Assembly: GCA_963823655.1 (NCBI GenBank)
Contig: CAWGMK010000013.1
Span: forward strand, 352,001 to 416,000
Length of the DNA: 64,000 nucleotides
Reading direction: 5' to 3'
Source: an uncultured Bacillota bacterium
GTDB taxonomy: Bacteria > Bacillota > DTU025 > MWDF01
The position numbers and the translations under genes were made by a program. The notes beneath the pieces are model-generated. The model saw nothing but the letters and a program-made list of their open reading frames with translations. It was not told the DNA's origin and made no database searches. This document shows positions 9,321 through 31,506 of this stretch, one piece after another (within the stretch, counting starts at the first letter, position 1; each line of letters begins with the position of its first letter).

Positions 9321-11149
9321 TTACTCGGCAATCATGGACACCCTTAATATCTCCTGCATCGTAGTTATACCCATCGTAGCTTTTATTGCGCCATCCACTA
9401 TCATGGGTTTCATGCCATTTCTCATGGCAACCTCTATGATCTGGTCCGACGTAGCCCTGGCATTGATGAGCTTCCTAATCTCCTCAGTAGTAATCATTAT
9501 CTCGAAAACGCCGGTTCGGCCGGAGTAACCGAGGCCGTTGCAGAACTGGCATCCGACCGGGTTGTACATCTTGACCGGCTCGGCCGGGTCGAATCCGGAT
9601 GACATTCCCAAGCTTCTTGACCCAGTTCCTCCACACTGCAAGGTCCGGAGTGTATTCTTTCCTGCAATGCTTGCACAAGAACGCGAACAAGCCTCTGCGC
9701 AAGGACCCCTAAGATAGAGCTGGACACCAAGAAGGGCTCGACTCCCATGTCGACAAGCCTGATCGGCGCGCCGCACGAATCGTTCGTATGCAATGTAGAA
9801 AGGACCAAATGCCCTGTCAATGCTGCATTTATCGCGATTCCGGCAGTCTCGCCGTCTCTTATCTCGCCGACCATTATGATGTCAGGGTCCTGCCTTAGAA
9901 TTGACCTCAAGCCGTTTGCGAAGTTCAATCCCGCCCTGGCGTTGGTCTGCACCTGGTTGATGCCGTCCAGCCTGTACTCAACAGGGTCTTCTACTGTAAT
10001 GATATTCAATGACGAGTCATTTATCTTGTTTAAACTGGAGTACAGCGTTCTCGTTTTTCCGGATCCTGTAGGGCCCGTAACCAGGATTATCCCGTAAGGC
10101 TTCTCCAACAGGTACCTCCACTGCTCCATGTTATCCTGCAGGAAGCCAAGCTGCTCAAGCTGCGTCTTCGCGCCTTTCTTAACCAAAAGCCTGCAGACGA
10201 CCTTCTCGCCGTAGATCGTAGGCAGCGTCGATACGCGAAGGTCCAGCTCCTCGTTCTCAATGACCAGCTGTATCCTGCCGTCCTGCGGCACACGCTTTTC
10301 AGCGATGTCCATGTTCGACATGACCTTGAACCTGGAAGCTATCGCATACCTCAGGTTTCTGGGCAGCTTCATCTGCTCGTGCAGTATGCCATCCACCCTG
10401 AAGCGCACTATAACAAAGTCCTGCCTCGGTTCCACATGTATGTCGGATGCGCCTTGTTTGTAGGCCTCGGATATGAGGGAGTTTACTATCCTGACAACTG
10501 GTCCCTCATCCCCGGCCACGTAGGAGGCCATATCGGTATCCTCATCCGCTGCTATGGTAGATACGCGCTCGTCGGATATCGACTTTATGATATCCTCAAG
10601 CCCTGATTCAGGATAATACCTGTTCAGGGCCATGCGCACATCCTCCTCCTTGGCGATGTAGGGGATTATGTTCATGCCCGTGATTATCTTTACATCATCG
10701 ATGGCGAAAACATTGATGGGATCCGCCATCGCGAGCTTCAGCTTGTCATTCACTATATCGATGGGGATTACCAGGTGTTTTCTGGCGATAGAACCGGGTA
10801 CAAGATCGAGGACGTCTGTAGGTATGATCTTATCCTTGAACGCGAACACCTCGAGGCCGAGCTGTTCTTTGAGGATTTCGACGATATCATCCTCAGTAAC
10901 CAGGTTTAAGGAGAGCAGGACTTTGCCTATCCTCTCCTTGGTTTTCTTCTGTTCCTCCATGGCGTTTTTAAGCTGATCATCAGTGATGACGCCCGTGGCG
11001 ACAAGAGCTTCACCAAGCCGCATCCTCTTATGGAAACCGGCGTATGCCTGCTTGCCGTTGGATCCGTTTCCGTTTACAGCCGATTTGGTCGCGCTGCCAT
11101 TTGGATCCTGCTCTTTGCCGGTAAACATCTTGCTATCGTTTTCAGGCAC
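9321..11149 (-). CDS. pilB: Extension ATPase PilB with N-terminal MshEN domain (frameshifts near 9670 and 9625)
   Basis: RLGEALV...QL..A..EQ MshEN motif, ASDIHVEP, GPTGSGKT, LRQDPDIIMVGEIRD; CKHC/CQFC Zn motifs lie in shifted frames. Confidence 0.95.
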
Positions 11150-11197
11150 TGTGCCACCCCCTGACTGAAAGCCTTGTGCGGGTCGCGTGCTTCTATC

Positions 11198-12409
11198 TTA
11201 GCCCTGAATTTCCATCATCCTGTCCAGTATGATGTGTGATAGCTCCGCCTTGCTCATCCTGGGAAGGGATTCTACATTGCCCTCACCCCTGATAATGCTC
11301 ACAAGATTGTCCTCAGAGCCAAAAGGCTGATTTGCAGGCCCAATCTCGTTTACAACTATCATATCGAGCCCCTTGCGGGAATATTTCTTGAATGCGTTGT
11401 CGATCGCATCCTCCGTCTCGGCAGCAAAACCCACCATCAACTGGTTGGATTTCCTCCCTGACAGGGATTTTAGTATATCCGGGTTCTCAGTGAGTTGTAA
11501 ATCGATATCTTCAGAAAAACCCTTCTTCATCTTGCCTTTTCGGTTCTCGGCCGGCCTGTAGTCAGCCACCGCCGCCGTCGCTATGAAAGCGTCGCAGCCA
11601 TCGAAACCGGAGGAGAGTGCATCCATCATCTGGATTGCAGTTTCGACTCTGATCACCGACATGCCGAGCGGGTCTTTTAATGCAGTAGGCCCCGAAACGA
11701 GCGTTACCTCAGCTCCCCTGGCAGCCGCTGCGCTTGCCATGGCGTAGCCCATCTTGCCGGACGACCTGTTTGCGATATATCTTACCGGGTCTATCGGCTC
11801 GACAGTCGGCCCAGCCGATACTAAAACCTTCATGCCCTTAAGAGAGGGCCTGCCGTTTGCGAAATATGCGTGCCTTACGACTTCGAAAATCTCTTCCGGC
11901 TCCGCCATGCGTCCGGGGCCCTCTGTGCCGCAGGCAAGCCTGCCCTGCACCGGCCCTGCGAATACATATCCGAGCCCTCTCAGCTTATCAACGTTGCCGC
12001 GCACAACGGCGTTCTCCCACATCGCATCGTTCATCGCGGGAGCCACTACCACAGGGCACCTGGATGCCATGAGCGTCGTCGTGAGCATATCGTCCGCGAT
12101 GCCGTTTGCCGCCTTGCCCAGGAAGTTCGCAGTCGCCGGGCAGACGAGGAAAAGCTGCGCCCTCTTGGCCAGGGACACATGCCTTACATCCCATTCCTCC
12201 GGCTCATCGAACATGTCGGTGACGACGGGGTTTCCGGTCAGGCTCCTGAAAGTAAGGGGCGCCACGAACTTCTGGGCGTTCGCGCTCATAATCACATGTA
12301 CATCGAAGCCGGCCTTGTTAAGCCGGCTTGCGAGCAGGGTCGACTTCGCAGCAGCTATGCCGCCTGTCACTCCCATGATTATTGAAGGTCTCGTTTTATC
12401 TTCAGTCAT
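11198..12409 (-). CDS. coaBC: Phosphopantothenoylcysteine decarboxylase/ligase
   Basis: GVTGGIAA, PATAN, APAMN, GPTVEPIDPVRYIANRSSGKMG, VGFAAET. Confidence 0.96.
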   Translation of the reverse strand: MTEDKTRPSIIMGVTGGIAAAKSTLLASRLNKAGFDVHVIMSANAQKFVAPLTFRSLTGNPVVTDMFDEPEEWDVRHVSLAKRAQLFLVCPATANFLGKAANGIADDMLTTTLMASRCPVVVAPAMNDAMWENAVVRGNVDKLRGLGYVFAGPVQGRLACGTEGPGRMAEPEEIFEVVRHAYFANGRPSLKGMKVLVSAGPTVEPIDPVRYIANRSSGKMGYAMASAAAARGAEVTLVSGPTALKDPLGMSVIRVETAIQMMDALSSGFDGCDAFIATAAVADYRPAENRKGKMKKGFSEDIDLQLTENPDILKSLSGRKSNQLMVGFAAETEDAIDNAFKKYSRKGLDMIVVNEIGPANQPFGSEDNLVSIIRGEGNVESLPRMSKAELSHIILDRMMEIQG

Positions 12410-21299: not shown

Positions 21300-21902
21300 C
21301 TAAAGGCTGTAATCAATTCCTGATGTCGCCTCGAAATCGTCAATCAGCTGCTTGTAGACTTCCAAATATCCCTTCATCCTCGCCCTGAGGGCCGATTCCT
21401 GCGCCGAAAGGTCTGCTAGCCTGCGCTCTGCAGCCTTGATCTTCTCGTCCGCATCCTTGGCTATTCCTGCTGCCTCGCGGGTGGCCTCGTTGATTATCGA
21501 GGACGCCTCCTTTGATGCAGTGGACCTTGCATCCTCTGCCGCCTTCTGGGCCATGGCAAGGATCTCTTTGATGCTCTTTGCGGCATCGTCCCAGTCCGGG
21601 CCGCTATATTGTACAGGTTCGGCCAGCACGGGCTCTTGCATCCTGACCGGCATCCGCTCCTGGGCCGCCGGTTTGTCTGCGATCCTGTCTGCGGCCTCGG
21701 CAGAGCGTGCTGGAGCAGCCGGTGCCGGGGGGGCCATCTCGGGCGCCTCCTGGTCGGCAGATCCCGAATTCTTCCTGTAGAACCTGTACAGCGCCTCATA
21801 ATCGCCTATGAGAAGGCCCAGGAAATCGTCCACTTCATTGCGGTCGTACCCGCGCATCCTGACCGAGAACTCCTTGTTTTTCAGCTCAAGGGGAGATATC
21901 AT
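21300..21902 (-). CDS. divIVA: DivIVA family protein
   Basis: Own RBS (GGAGG) and ATG at 21902; MISPLELKNKEFSVRMRGYDRNEVDDFL followed by coiled coil. Confidence 0.9.
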   Translation of the reverse strand: MISPLELKNKEFSVRMRGYDRNEVDDFLGLLIGDYEALYRFYRKNSGSADQEAPEMAPPAPAAPARSAEAADRIADKPAAQERMPVRMQEPVLAEPVQYSGPDWDDAAKSIKEILAMAQKAAEDARSTASKEASSIINEATREAAGIAKDADEKIKAAERRLADLSAQESALRARMKGYLEVYKQLIDDFEATSGIDYSL

Positions 21903-21913
21903 CGGCAACCCTC

Positions 21914-22694
21914 CTATATCACGGAGTATCTGGAAATCCTTATCGACAGGCGCCCCTTCTTGGTGATCGGGCCCTCTTCGTCCACTGTGAGCCTGCCCCT
22001 GCCGCGCATCACGATTACATCGCCCTAGTTTGATCTTGGCAGCAGAATCTGTTACAACCCTGCCGTTGAGCTTCGCCCTGCCAAGCTCGATCTCGGCTGC
22101 AAGGCGCGTCCTGCTAGCCGGAAAGCCGCATGCCGCCACCGCATCGAACCTCATGGAATTCACCGTGGCCCTGATGGGCTTAGCCTGTTGGCCTGGCAAT
22201 GCTATATCGTAAGGGTCGACGACCTTCACCGCGAACGGCAGCCCCCTGACGTCAATACCTTTGGATGCCAGCTTCTCCGCCGCCTGAATGCTAGCTACGC
22301 CGCAGACATCGGCACCAGAGAGGAACAGGTCGCCCAGCTCGGATTCCTGTACGCCCGCCGCCTTCACATAAGTAAGCATCTCATCGACTCCGGCATCGGG
22401 CGCCTTGATGCAGAAATATCCTATCTCCGGCTCGAACCCTTCCCAGTCGTACCCAACCGGGGCGATTGCCACTTTTGCCCTGCTGGAACCGCGGTACCCG
22501 CCATAGGTCCTGTATACTGCCTCAGACGATTTAAATAGCGCGGACTTTACGGCATCGCACGATTTCGAATCAAGAAACTGGGTGAGCGCCGGCCTGTTGT
22601 GCGCCAATGCCCTGTCGAAGGCCGCCTGGGCCGCTCCCGCCGCCTGTTCGCCTGCAATTGCCGCTACCCTGTCGTAAAGTTTCAAACCGATCAC
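21914..22694 (-). CDS. ylmH: YlmH S4-domain RNA-binding protein (frameshift near 22024)
   Basis: TQFLD, YGGY, SMRFDAV. Removing one G restores KLGDVIVMRGRGRLTVDEEGPITKKGRLSIRISRYSVI* (TAG at 21914). Confidence 0.8.
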
Positions 22695-23383
22695 CTCTGC
22701 CCGAAAATGGCCCTTCCTATCCTGACCATGGTGGCGCCCTCAATGATGGCCTCCTCGAAGTCCGAGGACATGCCCATCGAAAGCACCTTCATGTCGGTAT
22801 TTGCAAAACCTGCGGCTCGCGCCCTCTCGAATACTTCCCTTGCCCTGGGAAAATAGGAGCTTGAGTCCTCGGCGGGCGGTATCACCATAATCCCTGCACA
22901 AGTGAGGCTTTTAAGCTCTGCGAAATGGGCAAGGAGCTCACCCAGCACATCCGGTCCGAGGCCGGATTTTCCCTGTTCTCCGGCTATATTTACTTCGACT
23001 AGCACTTCCATGCGCTTGCCCATGTCAGCGCAAGCACTATTCAGCGCATCCGCAAGTCCCGTCGAATTTACGCTTTGCACCATGCTGAAGATTTTAGCGG
23101 CCTTTTTGGCCTTGTTCCTCTGTAATCCTCCGACCATATGCAGAAGGGCGCCTTCGGGCATTAAAGGGGCCTTCGCCTCGGCCTCCTGCACATAATTCTC
23201 CCCGAACTCCCTAATTCCTGCATCAAAGGCCTTTAGTATGGCTTCGGCCGGCTTTCTCTTGCTGATGCCGATCAGCCGGATCTCGCCGGGCTTCCTGCCG
23301 GAGCTGATGGCCGCGCGCCTGACCCTTTCCATTACCTCGGCGGCGTTCCTGCCGACTTGGGCCAGCTCATGCTCATCCATCAT
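22691..23383 (-). CDS. yggS: PLP homeostasis protein YggS/YlmE
   Basis: FGENYVQE, LQRNK, LSMGMSSDF, GATMVRIG. Confidence 0.95.
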   Translation of the reverse strand: MMDEHELAQVGRNAAEVMERVRRAAISSGRKPGEIRLIGISKRKPAEAILKAFDAGIREFGENYVQEAEAKAPLMPEGALLHMVGGLQRNKAKKAAKIFSMVQSVNSTGLADALNSACADMGKRMEVLVEVNIAGEQGKSGLGPDVLGELLAHFAELKSLTCAGIMVIPPAEDSSSYFPRAREVFERARAAGFANTDMKVLSMGMSSDFEEAIIEGATMVRIGRAIFGQR

Positions 23384-24566
23384 ATCTCACCTTGTCGCCC
23401 TGCCTTAGGGAATTGGACCTTACGGCGGCCTCCCCGTCCACAATCCCCAGGACCTCAACTTCCACTTCTATGAAGCGGTCCTGCCTCATGACCCTGACCA
23501 CGGACTTGCCGTCCCCTGTGGAAATCGCCCTGGCGGGCACTATCAGGCCGGAGTAGCTTTCCAAAAGCAGCTCCACTTCGACTGTCCTCATGCCGGTCAT
23601 TGAGGTCACATACCTGTCCAGCGAGAGGTATGCCCTTACGGTGCCGTCGTCTGCCGTCTTGCTGGCTTTAAGCTTGGCTGCCACTTTCTCGGACGACATC
23701 CTGGTGAACCTGAGCCTGTGCATGCTGCCGGGCAATAGGAACTCAGGGTCAACGCCCTGCAGGTACAAAAGCACATCGGTGCTGAGGCTGCCCACCTCCC
23801 TGAAGACTATGTCCCCAGCTAATAGGGCATCTCCCGGCTTTCTGACATTTTCCGAGGCCTCTTCCGAAATGGAGTAGTCCATGTCCAGGAGAGTGAGATT
23901 GGCAGGGGACAGCTCGTCCTCCAGCCCGTCCCATTCAAAGCTTACAACTGCCTGCCGGCCCGTCCTCACCTTTACTCCGCCCAGCTCTGCGTCCGCGGAC
24001 ACCGGAGACGGGGCGTCCATCGCCGCCTCAAGCTTCGCGTCATATTCCTCGGATGCTGCCACTTTTGCGGCAATTGCCTCCGCTACCCTGTCCTTTGAAT
24101 CCTGGACTTCCTTTTTCAGCCTCTCGGCGCTTCTGCTGTCCCCCCGGTTCAGGTAGATGGCAAGCTCAGCCTCCTTGGCGGAAAGGAATATCCTCGCATC
24201 GCTAAGTGCAGCATCCGCTTTCTCCAAAAGAAGCAGCGCCAAATCAGCCTCGTCCTTCAGCTTCTGGGCGACGTCCACCACCTCGGCCGGCTCAGGCAGG
24301 CCGCCGATTCTTGCCGCTACCCCGCCTTTGGCCAGCCTTTCGCCCTCTTTAGCAACGGGATTGAAGCTTCCGGGGGCTGATGCCGGCACCAGCCTCTCGT
24401 CTCTGATGACAAGCGCGTTGCAGGAGGCAAACCTCTCCACAGTGCCCTCCTGGACGATGATGGTAGGCGTTACCCTGCCTATGAGCGAGTCATATACCAT
24501 GGAGTAAGCCACGGTCAGGAAGATCAGGGCCAGGGCGATAAGCACCCACAACCCGAACCTTCTCAT
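23373..24566 (-). CDS. HlyD-like membrane fusion/adaptor protein of unknown function
   Basis: N-terminal TM, barrel-sandwich motif (EGERLAKGG), coiled coil, C-terminal GLIVPARAI...LRQGDKV. Confidence 0.7.
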   Translation of the reverse strand: MRRFGLWVLIALALIFLTVAYSMVYDSLIGRVTPTIIVQEGTVERFASCNALVIRDERLVPASAPGSFNPVAKEGERLAKGGVAARIGGLPEPAEVVDVAQKLKDEADLALLLLEKADAALSDARIFLSAKEAELAIYLNRGDSRSAERLKKEVQDSKDRVAEAIAAKVAASEEYDAKLEAAMDAPSPVSADAELGGVKVRTGRQAVVSFEWDGLEDELSPANLTLLDMDYSISEEASENVRKPGDALLAGDIVFREVGSLSTDVLLYLQGVDPEFLLPGSMHRLRFTRMSSEKVAAKLKASKTADDGTVRAYLSLDRYVTSMTGMRTVEVELLLESYSGLIVPARAISTGDGKSVVRVMRQDRFIEVEVEVLGIVDGEAAVRSNSLRQGDKVRYDG

Positions 24567-24628
24567 ATATTCCCCGCCTGAGCTACGGTTTTCGACGCCG
24601 TGCCCGCCCGATTGCGCCTTATCGTCCA

Positions 24629-25444
24629 TTAGCCTTGCAGCGAGGCGGCAATCGCCGCCGAACGCCCCGTCCTTCCCTTATCTCTCCTGTGCGAGAAGAA
24701 CATGCCCTCCTCGCAGGAAGTGCACCCTTCATAGCTGGATATATGGCTCTTGGTAAAACCGAGGGATAACAGCTGAAGCTCGTTGGCATACCCAAGGTCG
24801 GCCCTTATGATGCCCGCTTCCCTGCTGATCGCAGGCGCGCAGAATTCCATCGAGGATATTGCGTCTGCGACTTCCTCCCCCACTTCATAGCAGCACGGCC
24901 TGATATGAGGGCCGATGGCGGCTATGCAGTCGGCGGCATTCTCTTTTGTGATGCCCATTGAATCTGCCAGGGCCAGGCACGCGCCAAGCGCCGTCCCTCG
25001 CCAACCCGCATGCACTACGCCTATGCGCCCTGTCTTTGGGTTTGCAATCACAATCGGCACGCAGTCAGCGAAAGTGCCAATCAGGGACACTCCCGGACGG
25101 CTTGTGAATATCCCGTCCGTCCCTGGGATCGAGCCTTCCGGCAGCATACCGCCGCCGATGGCGCCATCCTCGACTTCTTGAATCCTTACGCCATGGATCT
25201 GCCTCATGGAGGCGGCCTTTGACGGATCCAAACCCAGCTCGGTAAGCACAAGCTCCCTGTTCTTTATGACATTCGAGGGATCGTCCGGAACGCCAAAGCC
25301 CATGTTCAGCCCGTCGAAAGGAGGAGGGCTCCACCCGCCCTTCCTGGTAGTAAAGGCCGCGATGAAGCCCTCTTCGGCGAATATCCTCGATTTCAGCAGG
25401 ACCAGGCCTTCCCGGCCCTCACAAAGCTTAAAATCGCCGCCCAC
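24629..25444 (-). CDS. pgeF: PgeF/YlmD/YfiH family (peptidoglycan editing / purine nucleoside phosphorylase)
   Basis: FTTRKGG, QIHG, DG..T, ADCVPI, HAGWRG, GP.I..CCYEVG, FFSHR. Confidence 0.93.
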   Translation of the reverse strand: MGGDFKLCEGREGLVLLKSRIFAEEGFIAAFTTRKGGWSPPPFDGLNMGFGVPDDPSNVIKNRELVLTELGLDPSKAASMRQIHGVRIQEVEDGAIGGGMLPEGSIPGTDGIFTSRPGVSLIGTFADCVPIVIANPKTGRIGVVHAGWRGTALGACLALADSMGITKENAADCIAAIGPHIRPCCYEVGEEVADAISSMEFCAPAISREAGIIRADLGYANELQLLSLGFTKSHISSYEGCTSCEEGMFFSHRRDKGRTGRSAAIAASLQG

Positions 25445-25447
25445 TTT

Positions 25448-26005
25448 TCATTCCCTGCCAGTATAGGCTACTATTCCATCGGCGATTATGTCGCCGGACG
25501 CCGTCTTGATGAAGTAAAGTTTTGACCCTTCCGCGGGGTTCTTCTTCTTCTCCATGACCCCCTGATGCCTTACGATGACCTGCTTCTTGGGGTCGATATG
25601 CCCGTTTCTGAGCATCATGTAATCATGCATTATGACTGTGTCTCCGGCAGAAAGGCGCTCCACTTCTGTGCAGACTTCCTTCCCGCCCCTGATGATGGGG
25701 ATTATGGTTCCGCAGGCGAACTTCGCCTTGCCCTTCCTTACCGCAACCGTAACGGTCGTTTCGTGCTCCCAGAAGCTCCTTCTGGCAAGCTCCTCGATTT
25801 CCGTCCAGCCCGAAGCGCTAAGGACCTTTATGTTGAGCTGAGGCCAGCCTTCGGGGCACCCTTCAGCGTCAAGATAGGCATCGAACCAGCTGACATCCGT
25901 CTTCAGTATTTCCGCCCCGTCTTTTAGCAGTACGACCTCGGCCCCTTCGGGCAATCCGCCTGCAAAATTGGGATCGGCCTGCGTGATCCTGTTTTCCTGT
26001 GGCAT
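25448..26005 (-). CDS. Hypothetical protein with a degenerate HINT (intein-like) fold, catalytic residues absent
   Basis: AAGGAG RBS; 14 nt after the ftsZ stop. Block-like segments: GLPEGAEVVLLKDG (A), KVLSASGWTEI, VERLSAGDTV, LYFIKTASGDIIADGIVAYT (F/G). Confidence 0.65.
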   Translation of the reverse strand: MPQENRITQADPNFAGGLPEGAEVVLLKDGAEILKTDVSWFDAYLDAEGCPEGWPQLNIKVLSASGWTEIEELARRSFWEHETTVTVAVRKGKAKFACGTIIPIIRGGKEVCTEVERLSAGDTVIMHDYMMLRNGHIDPKKQVIVRHQGVMEKKKNPAEGSKLYFIKTASGDIIADGIVAYTGRE

Positions 26006-26019
26006 TGATTATGCTCCTT

Positions 26020-27129
26020 CTATCGCCTGAGAAACGGCGGGATATCCTCGTCGTCTTCCTGTACGGGCCCGCTGGGCGCCCTGGGTGCCTGCACCGGCTT
26101 TACATCGGCGTTATAGGTGGGCGCCTGCCTTTGCGGCGCCGTGCGCCTTTGCATGATGCCCCTCATGTTAGCCGACTGGTCGCTGAAGCCCGCGGCGATT
26201 ACGGTGATTTTCACTTTGCCCTCCATGGTAGGGTCCACGACGGATCCGAAAATGACCATGGCATCAGGGTCTACGCTGTCATGTATGTGTCCGGCTGCCT
26301 GATACACTTCGCTGAGCGTCAGGTCGTCGCCGCCCGTGACGTTGAAAAGAACGCCCTTGGCGCCTTGAATGGAGGCTTCCAGCAGAGGGCTCGAGATGGC
26401 CTCCTTGGCGGCCACAAGCGCCCTGTCCTCGCCCTCGGCGATGCCGATTCCCATAAGGGCCGAGCCCGCGTTGGTCATGATGGTCTTCACGTCCGCGAAG
26501 TCCACGTTCACCTCGCCGGCCTTCACGATTACGTCGGTGATGCCCTGTATGCCCTGCCTGAGCACGTCGTCGGCTACCCTGAAAGCTTCCGACAGCCTGG
26601 TGTTCTTCTCGACCACCGTCAAGAGCCTCTCGTTCGGTATTATTATCAGGGTGTCTACCTTGCTTCTGAGCTCCTCAATGCCTTTTATGGCGAAGTCGGA
26701 CCTTCTGGCACCCTCGAAGTTGAACGGCTTGGTAACTACGCCGACCGTCAAAGCGCCGGTCTGCCGGGCTATCTCGGCGATGAGTGGGCTTGCCCCCGTG
26801 CCGGTGCCGCCGCCCATGCCTGCAGTCACAAAGACCATGTCCGCGCCGGACAGGGCCTCAGTTATGTTATCCCTGCTCTCTTCGGCCGCCTGTTTGCCCA
26901 CCTCGGGGTTCGCGCCTGCGCCCAAACCCTTTGTGAGGTTCGCGCCCAGCTGGACTTTCTTGGGCGCCAGGCTCCTTGAGAGCGCCTGGGCATCCGTATT
27001 CATGCTTATGAATTCGACGCCGTCTATGCCTGCTTCTACCATCCTGTTTACGGCATTGCATCCGGCGCCGCCAACACCTACTACTTTTATCTTCGCCGAT
27101 CCGAGGCCCTCAGCTTCTACTACGAACAT
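26020..27129 (-). CDS. ftsZ: Cell division protein FtsZ
   Basis: [17 protein letters not shown] tubulin motif, NVDFADV, C-terminal DIPPFLRR. Confidence 0.99.
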
Positions 27130-28424: not shown

Positions 28425-29216
28425 CTACTTGGTACCAAGCACCGGCCTGTCGGCTATCCTCACATCTATATACTTAAATGCCTGCTTCCTGGCCCTTGCG
28501 CCTGATAGGATGTCGACGGCCATGGCCAGCTTTTCCTCTATGCCGTCAGCGGCGCCAAGCAATATTCTGGAACCCTCATTAGTAATTATAACAATATCCT
28601 GCATGTCTTTCACATTAACTTCGGAGATGTTGGGCACGTTCTTCTGGCGAAGTTGCGCGCCGAGGCTGCATGCTGCCTCGATCCTGCTTGCCGGTTTGAC
28701 CTTCTCGCCAAGCAGCGCGAAGGTGGGGACGAAGCCCGTGATTATGGGCAGGTTAGGATCGGTTATCGCCTCTGAGACTCCAATTGCGAGGCCTCCCGCG
28801 TCCAGCTCCATGAAGAATCCCCCGTAGGGCAAGTAGGCCACAGTCTGCCTTTCGACTATTGTGATCTCAAGTTTCGAGGGGTAGCTCTTCCTGATGATCG
28901 CAGACTCAATCCGGGGCGCCATCATAAGGCGCTCGGCTATGCCCTTCGATCTTATAAGCAACATGTTCCTGTCGCGCGGCACCCTGGCGAGCTCCTCGAC
29001 TTCCATGGCCGAGAAATGCAAGTTGCCGGCAACTCCTACTTCCCTTACGTCGAACGCAGGCGAATACAGGAATGTGATTACGGCGATCATGGCGAAGGCA
29101 AGGAGTATTGGCAACGCCGCAGGCCTGGGCAAAGCCCTCTGCCTGCCTCCCACCGAGAACGTGCTATTCCCTTTGCCCGCTGGCATTCCTGCCGGGCTAT
29201 CGCTCATCCCAATCAC
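28425..29216 (-). CDS. ftsQ: Cell division protein FtsQ/DivIB
   Basis: TM, POTRA domain (V.GN...YPSKLEITIVER), C-terminal YIDVR; directly upstream of ftsA. Confidence 0.85.
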   Translation of the reverse strand: MIGMSDSPAGMPAGKGNSTFSVGGRQRALPRPAALPILLAFAMIAVITFLYSPAFDVREVGVAGNLHFSAMEVEELARVPRDRNMLLIRSKGIAERLMMAPRIESAIIRKSYPSKLEITIVERQTVAYLPYGGFFMELDAGGLAIGVSEAITDPNLPIITGFVPTFALLGEKVKPASRIEAACSLGAQLRQKNVPNISEVNVKDMQDIVIITNEGSRILLGAADGIEEKLAMAVDILSGARARKQAFKYIDVRIADRPVLGTK

Positions 29217-30130
29217 CGACGAGCCTTACTTCAGGCTCCAGCCTCTCTCCGAATCTCTCGAACACTTCTTGCCTCACCTTGTCGATGAGAGCGCGTACTT
29301 CGGATGATTTCGCGTTCGCCGCGTTCACTATGAAGTTCGCATGCTTCAAGGAGACCATCGCTCCTCCGAGCCTGCTGCCCTTAAGTCCGCAGGAATCTAA
29401 TAAGCCTGCCAGCCCCCGCGCCTGTCGGGTTTCTGAAGATGCAGCCGGCATTTGGAAGCTCCAGTGGCTGCTTCGATGCCCTGTCCTTAAGAAGCTCCGA
29501 TGCTTTCGCCCTCATCGCGTCCTTGTCTGCTTTCTCGATATGGGCATGCATCGACAGGGCGATGTAGCCTTGCTTCATTAACGCGCTGGTCTTCGGGCCG
29601 AACTCCATCTGCTCGCAGTCGAGCTCGAGGCCCTCCCCCGCTGCATTCACAGCAATTACCCTCTTAGTCACCTTAGAGATGTTCCATCCATAGGCACCGG
29701 CGTTCATATGAAGGCCGCCTCCGATGGAACCGGGTATCCCGCACGCCTCGACGAAACCGGAGAAACCCTCATCCACAAGGGCCTTTGAAAGGGCCGGCAT
29801 GAAGACGCCGGATTCGGCGACAAGCGTATCGCCATCGATGCTCCATCTCTTCAAAGATGTGGTCGCAAGAACAAGGCCCCTAATGCCGGCATCTGCAACT
29901 AGCAGGTTGCTTCCGGCCCCCAGGACTAGATGCTCTATGGCATTTGCATGGGCCCAGCGTATGCAAGCGGCGAAGCTTTCGGCGTCAGCGGGGGCCGTGA
30001 ATATGTCTGCTGGGCCTCCGAGCCTGAAAGTGGTATGCAGGCTCATTGGCTCATCCATAAGCACAGGCGAGCCCGACAGGCTTTCCAGCTCCCTTTGCGC
30101 CTTATCCGAAAGCATCAGCTTAGCGCCCAT
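29197..30130 (-). CDS. murB: UDP-N-acetylmuramate dehydrogenase (frameshift near 29420)
   Basis: HTTFRLGGPAD, GAGSNLL, GIPGSIGG..MNAGAYG, QPLELPNAGCIFRNP, HANFIVN, LEPEV. Confidence 0.93.
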
Positions 30131-31506
30131 CCTCGCCCTCCTTGAGGCGTTCTGCCATAATCCTTGTAGCCTTCCAGATGTCGCCGGCGCCCATTGTAAC
30201 TACCGTATCTCCCCTTCTGGCGATGGAAAGCGCCCAAACGGCCGCGGCCTCGGCGCCTTCCGCGAAGTCCACAGTGCTCCCTCTGACCATGGAAATCCTT
30301 CCGGCCAGCACTCTTCCGTTGACCCCTTCTATGGGCTCCTCACCGGTGCCTTTGTAGTAGACTTCCGTCACAAGCAGGTAATCGGCGTCGGAGAAAGCCG
30401 TGGCGAACCGGTCCATAAGCAGCTTGGTCCTTGAGAACCTCTGTGGCTGGAAGATAGCGATAAGCCTTCCTGGCGTCGCGGATTTAAGAGCTGACAGGGT
30501 CGCCTTTACTTCTTCGGGATGGTGGGCGTAGTCATCGATCACTTCGATGCCGGCCGAAACCGATATCCTCTGGCATCTCCTGTCCGCGCCTTTATAGGCA
30601 AAAATGCCATCCCTGATCTTGTCGAAGGGCACGCCTATTTCCAAAGCCACGGCGGCCGCCCCCAAAGCGTTTGCTATGTTGTGCATGCCCGGCACTGCCA
30701 GCTTGAGCCTTCCCAGGGCAGCCCCGTGCTGAATTACCGTAAACTCCGAGCCGAAGCCCGAAACGACGACGTCCTTTGAGCCATAGCCGTTCGCCTCCGT
30801 CAGCCCGTAGCGTACCGTTTTGCATGTGGCCTTTTGCGCGGCCTCAACGGCGTCCGGAGAATTCTGAACATACAACTAGCAAGCCATCCTGCCTGATGCT
30901 TGCCGAATATGAGCCGAATGCTTCCTTGATGGCCTCATAAGTGCCGTAGTGGTCCCTGTGGTCATCGTCGACATTGGTGATTATCGCAGCATAGGGCCTG
31001 AGCTTTAGAAATGTGCCGTAGGCTTCGTCAGCCTCCACTACCATGTAGGGACCGGCCCCATACCTGCCTCCTGTGGGCATATCGGGAAGCCCGGAGCCCA
31101 CTAGAGCCATTGGGTCTAATCCTGCCTCTATGAGTATGTATGTAAGCATTGCCGTGGTGGTCGTCTTGCCATGTGTGCCTGTGACTCCAATCCCGCAAGT
31201 CGAGTTGAAGAGCATGGCCAGCAGGTCGGCCCTTGGCAGCACCTTTATACCAAGCCTTCTTGCCTCACTCAGCTCCGGATCATCCTCTGGCACGGCATTC
31301 GAGTAAATCACAGCCGTGGATGAGGCGATTCCTTCCGGGTTGTGCCCGAGCCAGACCTGCGCGCCCATCCCTTCCAGCTCCCTGAGCCCGGCGCTGTCCT
31401 TGATGTCCGAACCGGAGACCTGGTTTCCCAGCTTGAGGAGTATGGCCGCCAGCGGCCTCATGCCGTAGCCTCCAGCGCCTATGAAATGCACCCTGCCTTC
31501 TATCAT
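30120..31506 (-). CDS. murC: UDP-MurNAc--L-alanine ligase (frameshift near 30878)
   Basis: HFIGAGGYGM, GTHGKTTT, EADE, DDYAHHP, FQPQRFSRT. Confidence 0.94.

Follow-up and report, generated by a model that had tools for sequence, protein, structure and literature searches.

A predicted free-standing HINT-fold protein in the ftsZ/ylm neighbourhood of an order of uncultured Bacillota

The window analysed here is a stretch of 64,000 nucleotides from contig CAWGMK010000013.1 of an uncultured Bacillota bacterium (positions 352,001 to 416,000), and it holds a cell division cluster in which an unannotated gene, here called X, lies between ftsZ and pgeF. X (protein P0001; 25448..26005, minus strand, stop codon included) starts with ATG and encodes a stand-alone protein of 185 residues. 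Profile comparison and structure prediction indicate that this protein very probably has the HINT fold; its canonical splicing residues are replaced, and its gene is maintained by purifying selection. We regard it as fairly probable that X is a free-standing HINT protein with a non-catalytic binding or adaptor role in the division/envelope gene set.

Gene X and its neighbours

An AAGGAG ribosome-binding site (26014..26019, minus strand) precedes the ATG of X by 8 nt and lies directly 3′ of the stop codon of ftsZ (26020..27129, minus strand; Pfam Tubulin and FtsZ_C), which by synteny is the upstream neighbour of X in the window's genus only. The distance from the ftsZ stop to the X start is 14 nt, and 3 nt separate the X stop from the GTG start (at 25444) of the 3′-adjacent pgeF/yfiH-type gene (24629..25444, minus strand; PF02578). 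Coordinates and sequence agree with the original prediction, which had described a 185-residue open reading frame (ORF) with its own ribosome-binding site at these distances from the two genes. Further along the minus strand follow a gene for a HlyD_2-like membrane protein (23373..24629; Pfam and synteny), an ancestral gene of the ylm operon in the phylum, whose product in the window carries an N-terminal membrane segment; a gene for a yggS/ylmE-type pyridoxal phosphate (PLP)-binding protein (22691..23383; Pfam); and a single 464-aa ORF that holds both ylmH-like and divIVA sequences (21300..22694). Pfam confirms the neighbours around X as FtsQ, FtsA, FtsZ, PgeF, HlyD_2, the YggS-type PLP protein, DivIVA, LspA and Lgt. 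X itself is soluble, with no hydrophobic segment, and the isoelectric point across orthologue rows is 4.8–8.6, mildly acidic in most.

No promoter- or terminator-like site was seen between ftsZ, X and pgeF on the coding strand, where the scans ran at chance level. In three metatranscriptome runs of one study, ~5% of the sampled words were present; their contigs overlap portions of ftsZ and the start of X but leave the remainder of X and pgeF without coverage, a gap that carries no weight. A 303-nt RNA-library contig, ~91% identical, spans the 3′ end of ftsZ and the first 78 nt of X, with DNA carry-over possible. Co-transcription of ftsZ and X in the window's genus is probable, being compatible with both the promoter scan and the bridging contig and proven by neither. 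An Rfam scan of two loci from sister families returned no match.

The HINT fold and the catalytic positions

Alignments of the family were built from the genus only (A1), from the whole order (A2, 21 rows), and from 4 genus rows with 19 others, some of them near-duplicates (A4). As a reference set we used 12 real inteins cut from genomes of the same phylum, all of which end in ..HN followed by C, S or T, and start at ..C where the N-terminal end was captured. Comparison of A2 with these inteins by hhalign gave a probability of 84.9% and E = 6.5e-6 over 111 columns, against E = 0.25 for a reversed intein control, and the aligned region spans block A, with Cys on Cys, through block B to the ..GD.. 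strand. AlphaFold2 on A2 returned an all-beta model with two short helices (predicted local distance difference test (pLDDT) 85.4, predicted template modelling score (pTM) 0.81). When this model was searched against the PDB with Foldseek, 38 matches fell at E ≤ 0.001; each of the 43 rows listed was one of the inteins, Hedgehog or BIL domains, headed by the TFIIB mini-intein 5o9i_A (E = 2.3e-7, template modelling score (TM) 0.66/0.71) and 7oec (TM 0.70/0.77). The viral library added 45 matches at E ≤ 0.001, comprising intein-bearing terminases, polymerases and reductases together with short free-standing proteins of 143–172 aa, one of them named 'Hint module'.

Sequence searches give weaker signals that agree with this. 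Intein_splicing was reached by 6 of the 21 members (best E = 0.0016) and Hint by 1 (E = 0.002), and 5 of the 11 sub-threshold matches of the A2 profile to PDB sequences were inteins (9hth, 8ubs, 5oxx, which is a split-intein half, 2cw7 and 2jmz). When the own genome's 17,421 six-frame ORFs, spiked with the intein loci, served as background, 4 of 6 non-self matches were intein ORFs, at E = 0.42–3.6. On the strength of the profile alignment, and of a predicted model that matches only inteins, Hedgehog and BIL domains, we consider it very probable that X has the HINT fold, as the original prediction had proposed. PHROGs gave no match to any of the 21 members. A PADLOC homing-endonuclease match in 1 of the 21 (E = 0.0035) was weak and treated as noise.

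The canonical intein residues are Cys or Ser at position 1, a block-B T-x-x-H, a block-F Asp, a terminal His-Asn pair and a +1 Cys, Ser or Thr. In X, the block A remnant defined by the alignments and hhalign (residues 17–30, GLPEGAEVVLLKDG; 25916..25957, minus strand) begins with Gly17, in a column that holds Cys in 18 of 19 non-genus orthologue rows and that hhalign pairs with the intein Cys. The block B remnant (residues 94–106; 25688..25726, minus strand) has A97 and T100 at the orthologue Thr and His positions and includes R106. The block F/G remnant (residues 163–182, LYFIKTASGDIIADGIVAYT; 25460..25519, minus strand), which is followed by 3 residues, has Phe165 in place of the block-F Asp and Tyr181-Thr182-Gly183 in place of His-Asn-(+1). 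The other peptide strings that had been quoted as intein-like also occur in the translation, namely KVLSASGWTEIEELARR (residues 60–76), GKAKFACGTIIP (92–103) and VERLSAGDTV (115–124), and the dead site described there, with Gly at Cys1, Ala and Thr in block B, Phe at the block-F Asp and Tyr-Thr at His-Asn, is confirmed throughout. All 4 genus rows share Gly, Ala and Thr at Cys1, Thr and His, and carry Phe, His or Asn where inteins have the block-F Asp, and either Tyr-Thr or Leu-Thr where they have His-Asn.

Catalytic decay is graded across the sister families. Among the 19 non-genus rows, Cys1 is kept in 18, the block-B Thr in 19 and the block-B His in 10 (Gln in 8, Ala in 1); the block-F Asp is found in 0 of 19 and the terminal Asn in 0 of 19 at the aligned column, with an Asn one column later in four f3-type rows. 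Behind a GGAGG site, sister-family orthologues begin with Met and two residues and then Cys (MQNCLPENT.., MQGCVSEDT..); they hold LTGEH/LTGDH-type strings and have C-termini such as ..VYQVETADHTLVANDFLTHTV. By their sequence these strings are readable as intein blocks A, B and F/G, block names taken from the intein literature.

Little surrounds the domain in any member: 0–16 residues precede block A (16 in the window, 3 in family f4) and 1–8 follow block G. Unlike a class 1 intein, X is not inserted in a host protein and has its own ribosome-binding site, start and stop; unlike BIL and Hedgehog domains, it has no cargo domain and, in the window protein, no nucleophile. Longer, fused relatives were searched for and none was found, which is weak evidence. 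The absence of exteins and of a homing endonuclease, as originally described, is supported. Class 3 inteins use a Trp-Cys-Thr (WCT) triad in blocks B, F and G; Cys98 of X, invariant within the genus, lies in block B and not in block F. The WCT motif of that class is named in the excerpted text of PMC7664689. Since the canonical residues are replaced and exteins are missing, no member of the family can splice, and the window protein cannot even start the reaction.

Eight columns are invariant in 23 of 23 rows: W67, R76, W79, E80, E82, R106, G149 and T168. The first five fall in a family-specific motif, G66-W67-T..R75-R76-x-x-W79-E80-x-E82 (25760..25810, minus strand), which in the model runs as a long strand (66–77) into a loop (78–82). 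This GWT..RR.LWE.E signature is absent from the 12 real inteins examined.

Distribution, selection and gene order

A profile search was run over 61 genomes, consisting of the own genome, others of the same genus and the same order, and 40 genomes from 40 other families of the phylum. An X orthologue was present, with one match each, in 21 of 21 genomes of the order (the own genome and 20 of 20 others), distributed as 6/6 plus the own genome in family f1, 1/1 in f2, 1/1 in f3 and 12/12 in f4, and in 0 of the 40 genomes from other families. The family is small, with 19 clusters among 5.8 billion proteins. A word-seeded search returned 13 close homologues, all unnamed or 'hypothetical protein', and exhaustive phmmer with X over 1.84 billion representatives found 5 proteins, one of which, P0016, a repetitive protein of 3023 aa with 9 short matched stretches, was judged spurious. 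A search for related loci with P0001 retrieved 5 close ones, from metagenome-assembled genomes labelled 'uncultured Clostridia bacterium' or 'Bacillota bacterium'. Distant orthologues are 20–26% identical to X, and the family has no name and no Pfam or NCBIfam model, being called hypothetical protein in every source.

X is under purifying selection, with a ratio of nonsynonymous to synonymous substitution rates (dN/dS) of ~0.19. Pairwise Nei-Gojobori medians are 0.185 in the genus (16 of 21 pairs with usable dS) and 0.204 in f4 (21 of 45), figures that are approximate because dS, at ~1.1–1.3, is near saturation; the same loci give 0.079 for FtsZ and 0.243 for PgeF. The reading frame is intact in 19 of 20 fetched loci, the 21st genome (G017) contributing only a 100-aa fragment at a contig end. 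The homologues are neither sporadic nor decaying: each of the 21 genomes of the order has a single copy, and the locus never changes. The term 'domesticated' in the original prediction seems fair in view of a dN/dS of ~0.19–0.20.

Two local irregularities were noted among the orthologues. The X orthologue of G020 (L020, 778–1527) departs from the family after ..VYQVETAD and continues for ~80 unrelated residues, a probable frameshift or assembly error. About 20 nt 5′ of the X start in L008–L015, the ribosome-binding region (..TGG AGG CGA TG..) is kept at the nucleotide level across several f4 genera, and in some genera it reads through in frame as a Cys/Trp/Arg-rich peptide; we take this conserved stretch to be a translation-initiation region and not coding sequence.

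We then compared gene order across the families of the order. The arrangement ftsA-ftsZ-X-pgeF-HlyD-like is found in 7 of 7 loci of the window's genus. The other three families supplied 9 longer loci, of which 7 reach ftsZ, and in 7 of these 7 a gap of 3.9–5.8 kb separates ftsZ from X. In the one locus whose gap was profiled (L021), it contains spoIIGA (PF03419), two sigma-70-family genes, spoIIR and the PRC-barrel gene ylmC. On the 3′ side of X, sister families have either pgeF (f2, f3) or the HlyD_2-like gene directly (f4), then yggS, an S4-domain ylmH-like gene and divIVA; pgeF directly follows X in f1, f2 and f3, the last from the longer locus L025. The most constant downstream neighbour is the HlyD-like gene, which lies 3′ of X in 16 of the 17 non-own loci extending that far (in L021, X ends at 10148 and the HlyD-like gene occupies 10163–11512). 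None of the 7 f4 loci examined (L021–L023, L026–L029) has pgeF in its usual position after X, ahead of the HlyD-like gene.

Where families do not have X, the six loci compared (L068–L073) read ..ylmC-pgeF-HlyD-like-yggS-sepF.. and contain no X-like ORF (best E = 1.1 with the A2 hidden Markov model). By gene order, X is therefore an order-specific insertion between ylmC and pgeF that heads an older (pgeF)-HlyD-like-yggS-ylmH-divIVA operon. Of the 20 other genomes in the order, 17 carry the HlyD-like gene; outside the order 11 of 40 do, each time within ~1–3 kb of sepF. Many families of the phylum have it as a conserved part of their pgeF-yggS-sepF-divIVA operon. The original prediction had linked X to ftsZ and suggested a check for conserved ftsZ-X-pgeF synteny; this link does not extend beyond the genus, and what stays constant beside X is pgeF together with the HlyD-like gene. 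Proximity to ftsZ is a secondary trait, and the conserved position of X is the head of the operon.

X and ftsZ are adjacent in the window because the sporulation block from spoIIGA to ylmC was lost in the genus. Neither SpoIIGA nor Spo0A had a match in the own genome (G000); as this genome nevertheless keeps X, the gene is not sporulation-specific. The window's genus is probably an asporogenous lineage within an order that bears spore genes.

SepF (PF04472) and YggT (PF02325) had no match in the cluster or anywhere in the 2.31-Mb, 97%-complete own genome, so their reported absence from the cluster holds genome-wide. Over the 61 genomes, SepF was found in 1 of 21 with X against 36 of 40 without it, and YggT in 0 of 21 against 32 of 40. 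YggT, a small membrane protein that is conserved widely, has thus been lost order-wide. Since the genomes with X all fall in a single clade, the complementary pattern amounts to one or two events and not to a correlation. In G008, of family f3, sepF sits in its usual yggS-sepF-ylmH slot on the same contig as X, which means that SepF was present when X was gained, or that the two at least existed together; X is also missing from four other families that have no SepF.

Several reading frames near X are irregular in the window. On the minus strand, murC (30120–31506) is split into two overlapping ORFs (30844–31506, 220 aa, and 30120–30875, 251 aa), interrupted within the Mur_ligase_M domain (Pfam). 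The frameshift in this essential gene is probably an assembly indel but could be real. Likewise, murB (29197–30130, minus strand) is split into ORFs of 249 aa (29381–30130) and 84 aa (29197–29451), with the break inside the MurB_C domain. The 464-aa ylmH-divIVA ORF corresponds to two separate, slightly overlapping ORFs in relatives, and the S4 domain present in the ylmH-like orthologue of L021 is undetected in the N-terminal 235 aa of the window ORF. Three likely indels within 10 kb suggest assembly errors in the contig; the length of X agrees with its orthologues despite them.

The role of X and its relation to known systems

A mechanism that would fit these observations begins with an intein-like autoprocessing domain that arrived at the base of one order of uncultured Bacillota/Clostridia. 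There it would have come to lie between ylmC and pgeF, leading the (pgeF)-HlyD-like-yggS-ylmH-divIVA operon. Selection holds on X where the chemistry cannot work, and its conserved function would therefore be non-catalytic. Most likely, X would now be a soluble protein of the cytoplasm that serves some component of the division/envelope ('ylm') gene set as a binding or adaptor module; its probable contact surface is the invariant GWT..RR.LWE.E stretch with R106. Loss of the spoIIGA-to-ylmC block in the genus would have brought X beside ftsZ and probably into the ftsZ transcript. The original view of a domesticated pseudo-intein kept as a non-catalytic module is supported in its fold, its dead site and its purifying selection.

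Certain observations count against this assignment of fold and role. X alone matched 0 Pfam families at E ≤ 10, and searches of NCBIfam and, by phmmer, of PDB sequences returned noise only. With the genus-only alignment A1, hhalign against the inteins fell to E = 0.0056 and a probability of 6.5%, and AlphaFold2 gave a poor fold (pLDDT 39.4). Because these tests fail, the HINT assignment for the window protein depends on alignment to the sister families, where the Pfam gathering cut-offs for Intein_splicing (PF14890) and Hint (PF01079) are also unreached (P0014 scored 15.8 bits against 35.8). The near-saturated dS loosens the estimate of selection, the Cys1 and Thr kept outside the genus mean that chemistry could still matter there, and the binding-module role is argued by elimination.

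The alternatives differ in what X would do for the cell. X could be a functional substitute for SepF and/or YggT that binds FtsZ, for example at its DIPPFLRR tail, in Z-ring assembly or anchoring. The complementary SepF and YggT pattern points this way, as do the position of X in an operon that normally carries sepF and yggT, its place directly after ftsZ in the genus and, weakly, the RNA contig that bridges ftsZ and the X start. That pattern, however, comes from a single clade, SepF and X stand together in G008, four families do without both, and X lies kilobases from ftsZ in other families. FtsA is encoded in the window, and its presence makes SepF dispensable in Bacillus subtilis. X also lacks an amphipathic or hydrophobic membrane-targeting segment and any PF04472 similarity, and YggT, unlike the soluble X, is integral to the membrane. 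We consider such a direct substitution improbable; of the replacement factor suggested in the original prediction, the complementary pattern stands, while the single event, the coexistence in f3 and the missing membrane segment speak against it. A predicted complex of X (A2) with FtsZ residues 316–369 (A3) scored 0.00 and 0.00, which counts neither for nor against binding. A broader version, in which X is a lineage-specific division/envelope factor derived from a domesticated intein domain that made SepF (and YggT) dispensable, is doubtful, and so is the bridge it would use, in which a further ylm-operon protein would let X tie FtsZ or DivIVA to the membrane, with RR.LWE.E as its docking surface. 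Within the adaptor reading lies the special case that X works with the HlyD_2-like protein (and/or PgeF), for instance as a cytoplasmic adaptor or regulator, and not at the Z-ring. The constancy of that neighbour favours it, but the HlyD-like gene predates X and, in the 11 genomes outside the order, stands beside yggS/sepF without it; most of the HlyD-like protein lies beyond the N-terminal membrane segment, and the window and L021 orthologues have very different short N-termini on the cytoplasmic side. This partnership is a rather unlikely one.

Other possibilities concern whether the old chemistry, or any function, survives. The family might still autoprocess, with Cys4 and T-x-x-H forming a thioester and cleaving or transferring a 3-residue leader in Hedgehog-like fashion, an activity then lost or changed in the window's genus. 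The retention of Cys1, of the block-B Thr and of about half the block-B His outside the genus would suit this, and there is precedent in Hedgehog domains, whose chemistry is limited to the N-S acyl shift, and in BIL domains, which mainly cleave, according to PMC7664689. With Gly, Ala and Thr at the key positions, autoprocessing cannot apply to the window protein. Elsewhere, 9 of 19 rows have another residue for the His and 19 of 19 for the block-F Asp, an Asn never occupies the aligned terminal column, and the 'N-extein' would be Met and two residues, with no cargo domain and, weakly, no fused forms found; selection is moreover equally strong in the dead genus. Autoprocessing therefore strikes us as hardly likely. 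It is very improbable that X is a decaying, functionless remnant of a mobile intein/BIL element or of a phage HINT gene: the eroded catalytic residues, the small size of the family and the existence of stand-alone HINT proteins in phages would agree with a remnant, but a single copy in every genome of 4 families, always at the same locus, with a low dN/dS, intact frames, eight invariant columns and no PHROG matches, would not. That X is the leftover of an intein once inside a neighbouring gene was also considered, and nothing supports it.

On the reading of X as a non-catalytic binding module, the family is a bare HINT domain turned into an ordinary, vertically inherited host gene under purifying selection, and a natural case for the conversion of a selfish autoprocessing fold into a non-catalytic module in bacteria. 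To our knowledge, HINT domains are known almost entirely as self-processing modules, in inteins, BIL domains, Hedgehog proteins and pretoxin HINT domains. No description of a HINT-fold protein in the dcw/ylm cluster was found in the open-access literature searched. Free-standing HINT proteins exist in phages, so that being stand-alone is not itself new; the novelty of X is that of a chromosomal family, unannotated, order-wide and under selection, that sits in the ftsZ/ylm neighbourhood and shows a graded loss of catalytic residues. With it, the conserved division neighbourhood around ftsZ and the ylm genes gains a member found throughout the order, in a clade mostly without SepF and without YggT. 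Should X indeed be a divisome factor, it would be the first HINT fold recruited into the bacterial divisome.

Among known systems, SepF resembles X in sharing its operon in a phylum where the X clade mostly lacks sepF; it differs in fold and family (X has no Pfam match) and in the membrane-targeting helix that X does not have, and both occur in G008. Stand-alone HINT proteins of phages and Bacteroidota (137–172 aa) are free-standing like X. The Lactobacillus phage P1 protein A0A1S5RCV4 (143 aa, TM 0.60/0.76) and the 144-aa 'Hint module' resemble its fold, and an Atlas search gave stand-alone phage/Bacteroidota HINT clusters scoring 0.86–0.92, which serve as leads only. These proteins show no detectable sequence relation to X and are phage-borne or sporadic, whereas X is chromosomal and order-wide. 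Yeast HO, as presented in the excerpted text of PMC7282813, is a domesticated, intein-derived host gene that no longer splices and is kept for a host function; unlike X, which is a bare HINT domain without an endonuclease, HO is eukaryotic and functions as a homing endonuclease.

BIL and Hedgehog/Hog domains are HINT domains that do not splice and retain partial chemistry, as PMC7664689 describes them, and the structures 1at0, 6tyy, 2lwy, 6y75 and 6tmm of this group are among the fold matches of the X model. The Cys1 and T-x-x-H of the sister families, without a terminal Asn, resemble Hedgehog. BIL and Hog domains, however, sit in larger proteins and release or modify flanking cargo, whereas X has no cargo and, in the genus, no nucleophile. 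The closest fold matches are class 1 mini-inteins (TFIIB, RadA, DnaB), which share the horseshoe HINT fold with X at E = 2.3e-7 to 1e-3 and TM 0.5–0.77; they are of similar size (~140–185 aa) and have the same A, B, F, G block order, and sister orthologues of X still keep the Cys1 and T-x-x-H. Unlike these mini-inteins, X is not contained in a host protein, has no terminal Asn or +1 nucleophile and, in the genus, no catalytic residue at all; and where mini-inteins are sporadic, X is vertically inherited at one locus with an invariant GWT..RR.LWE.E motif of its own.

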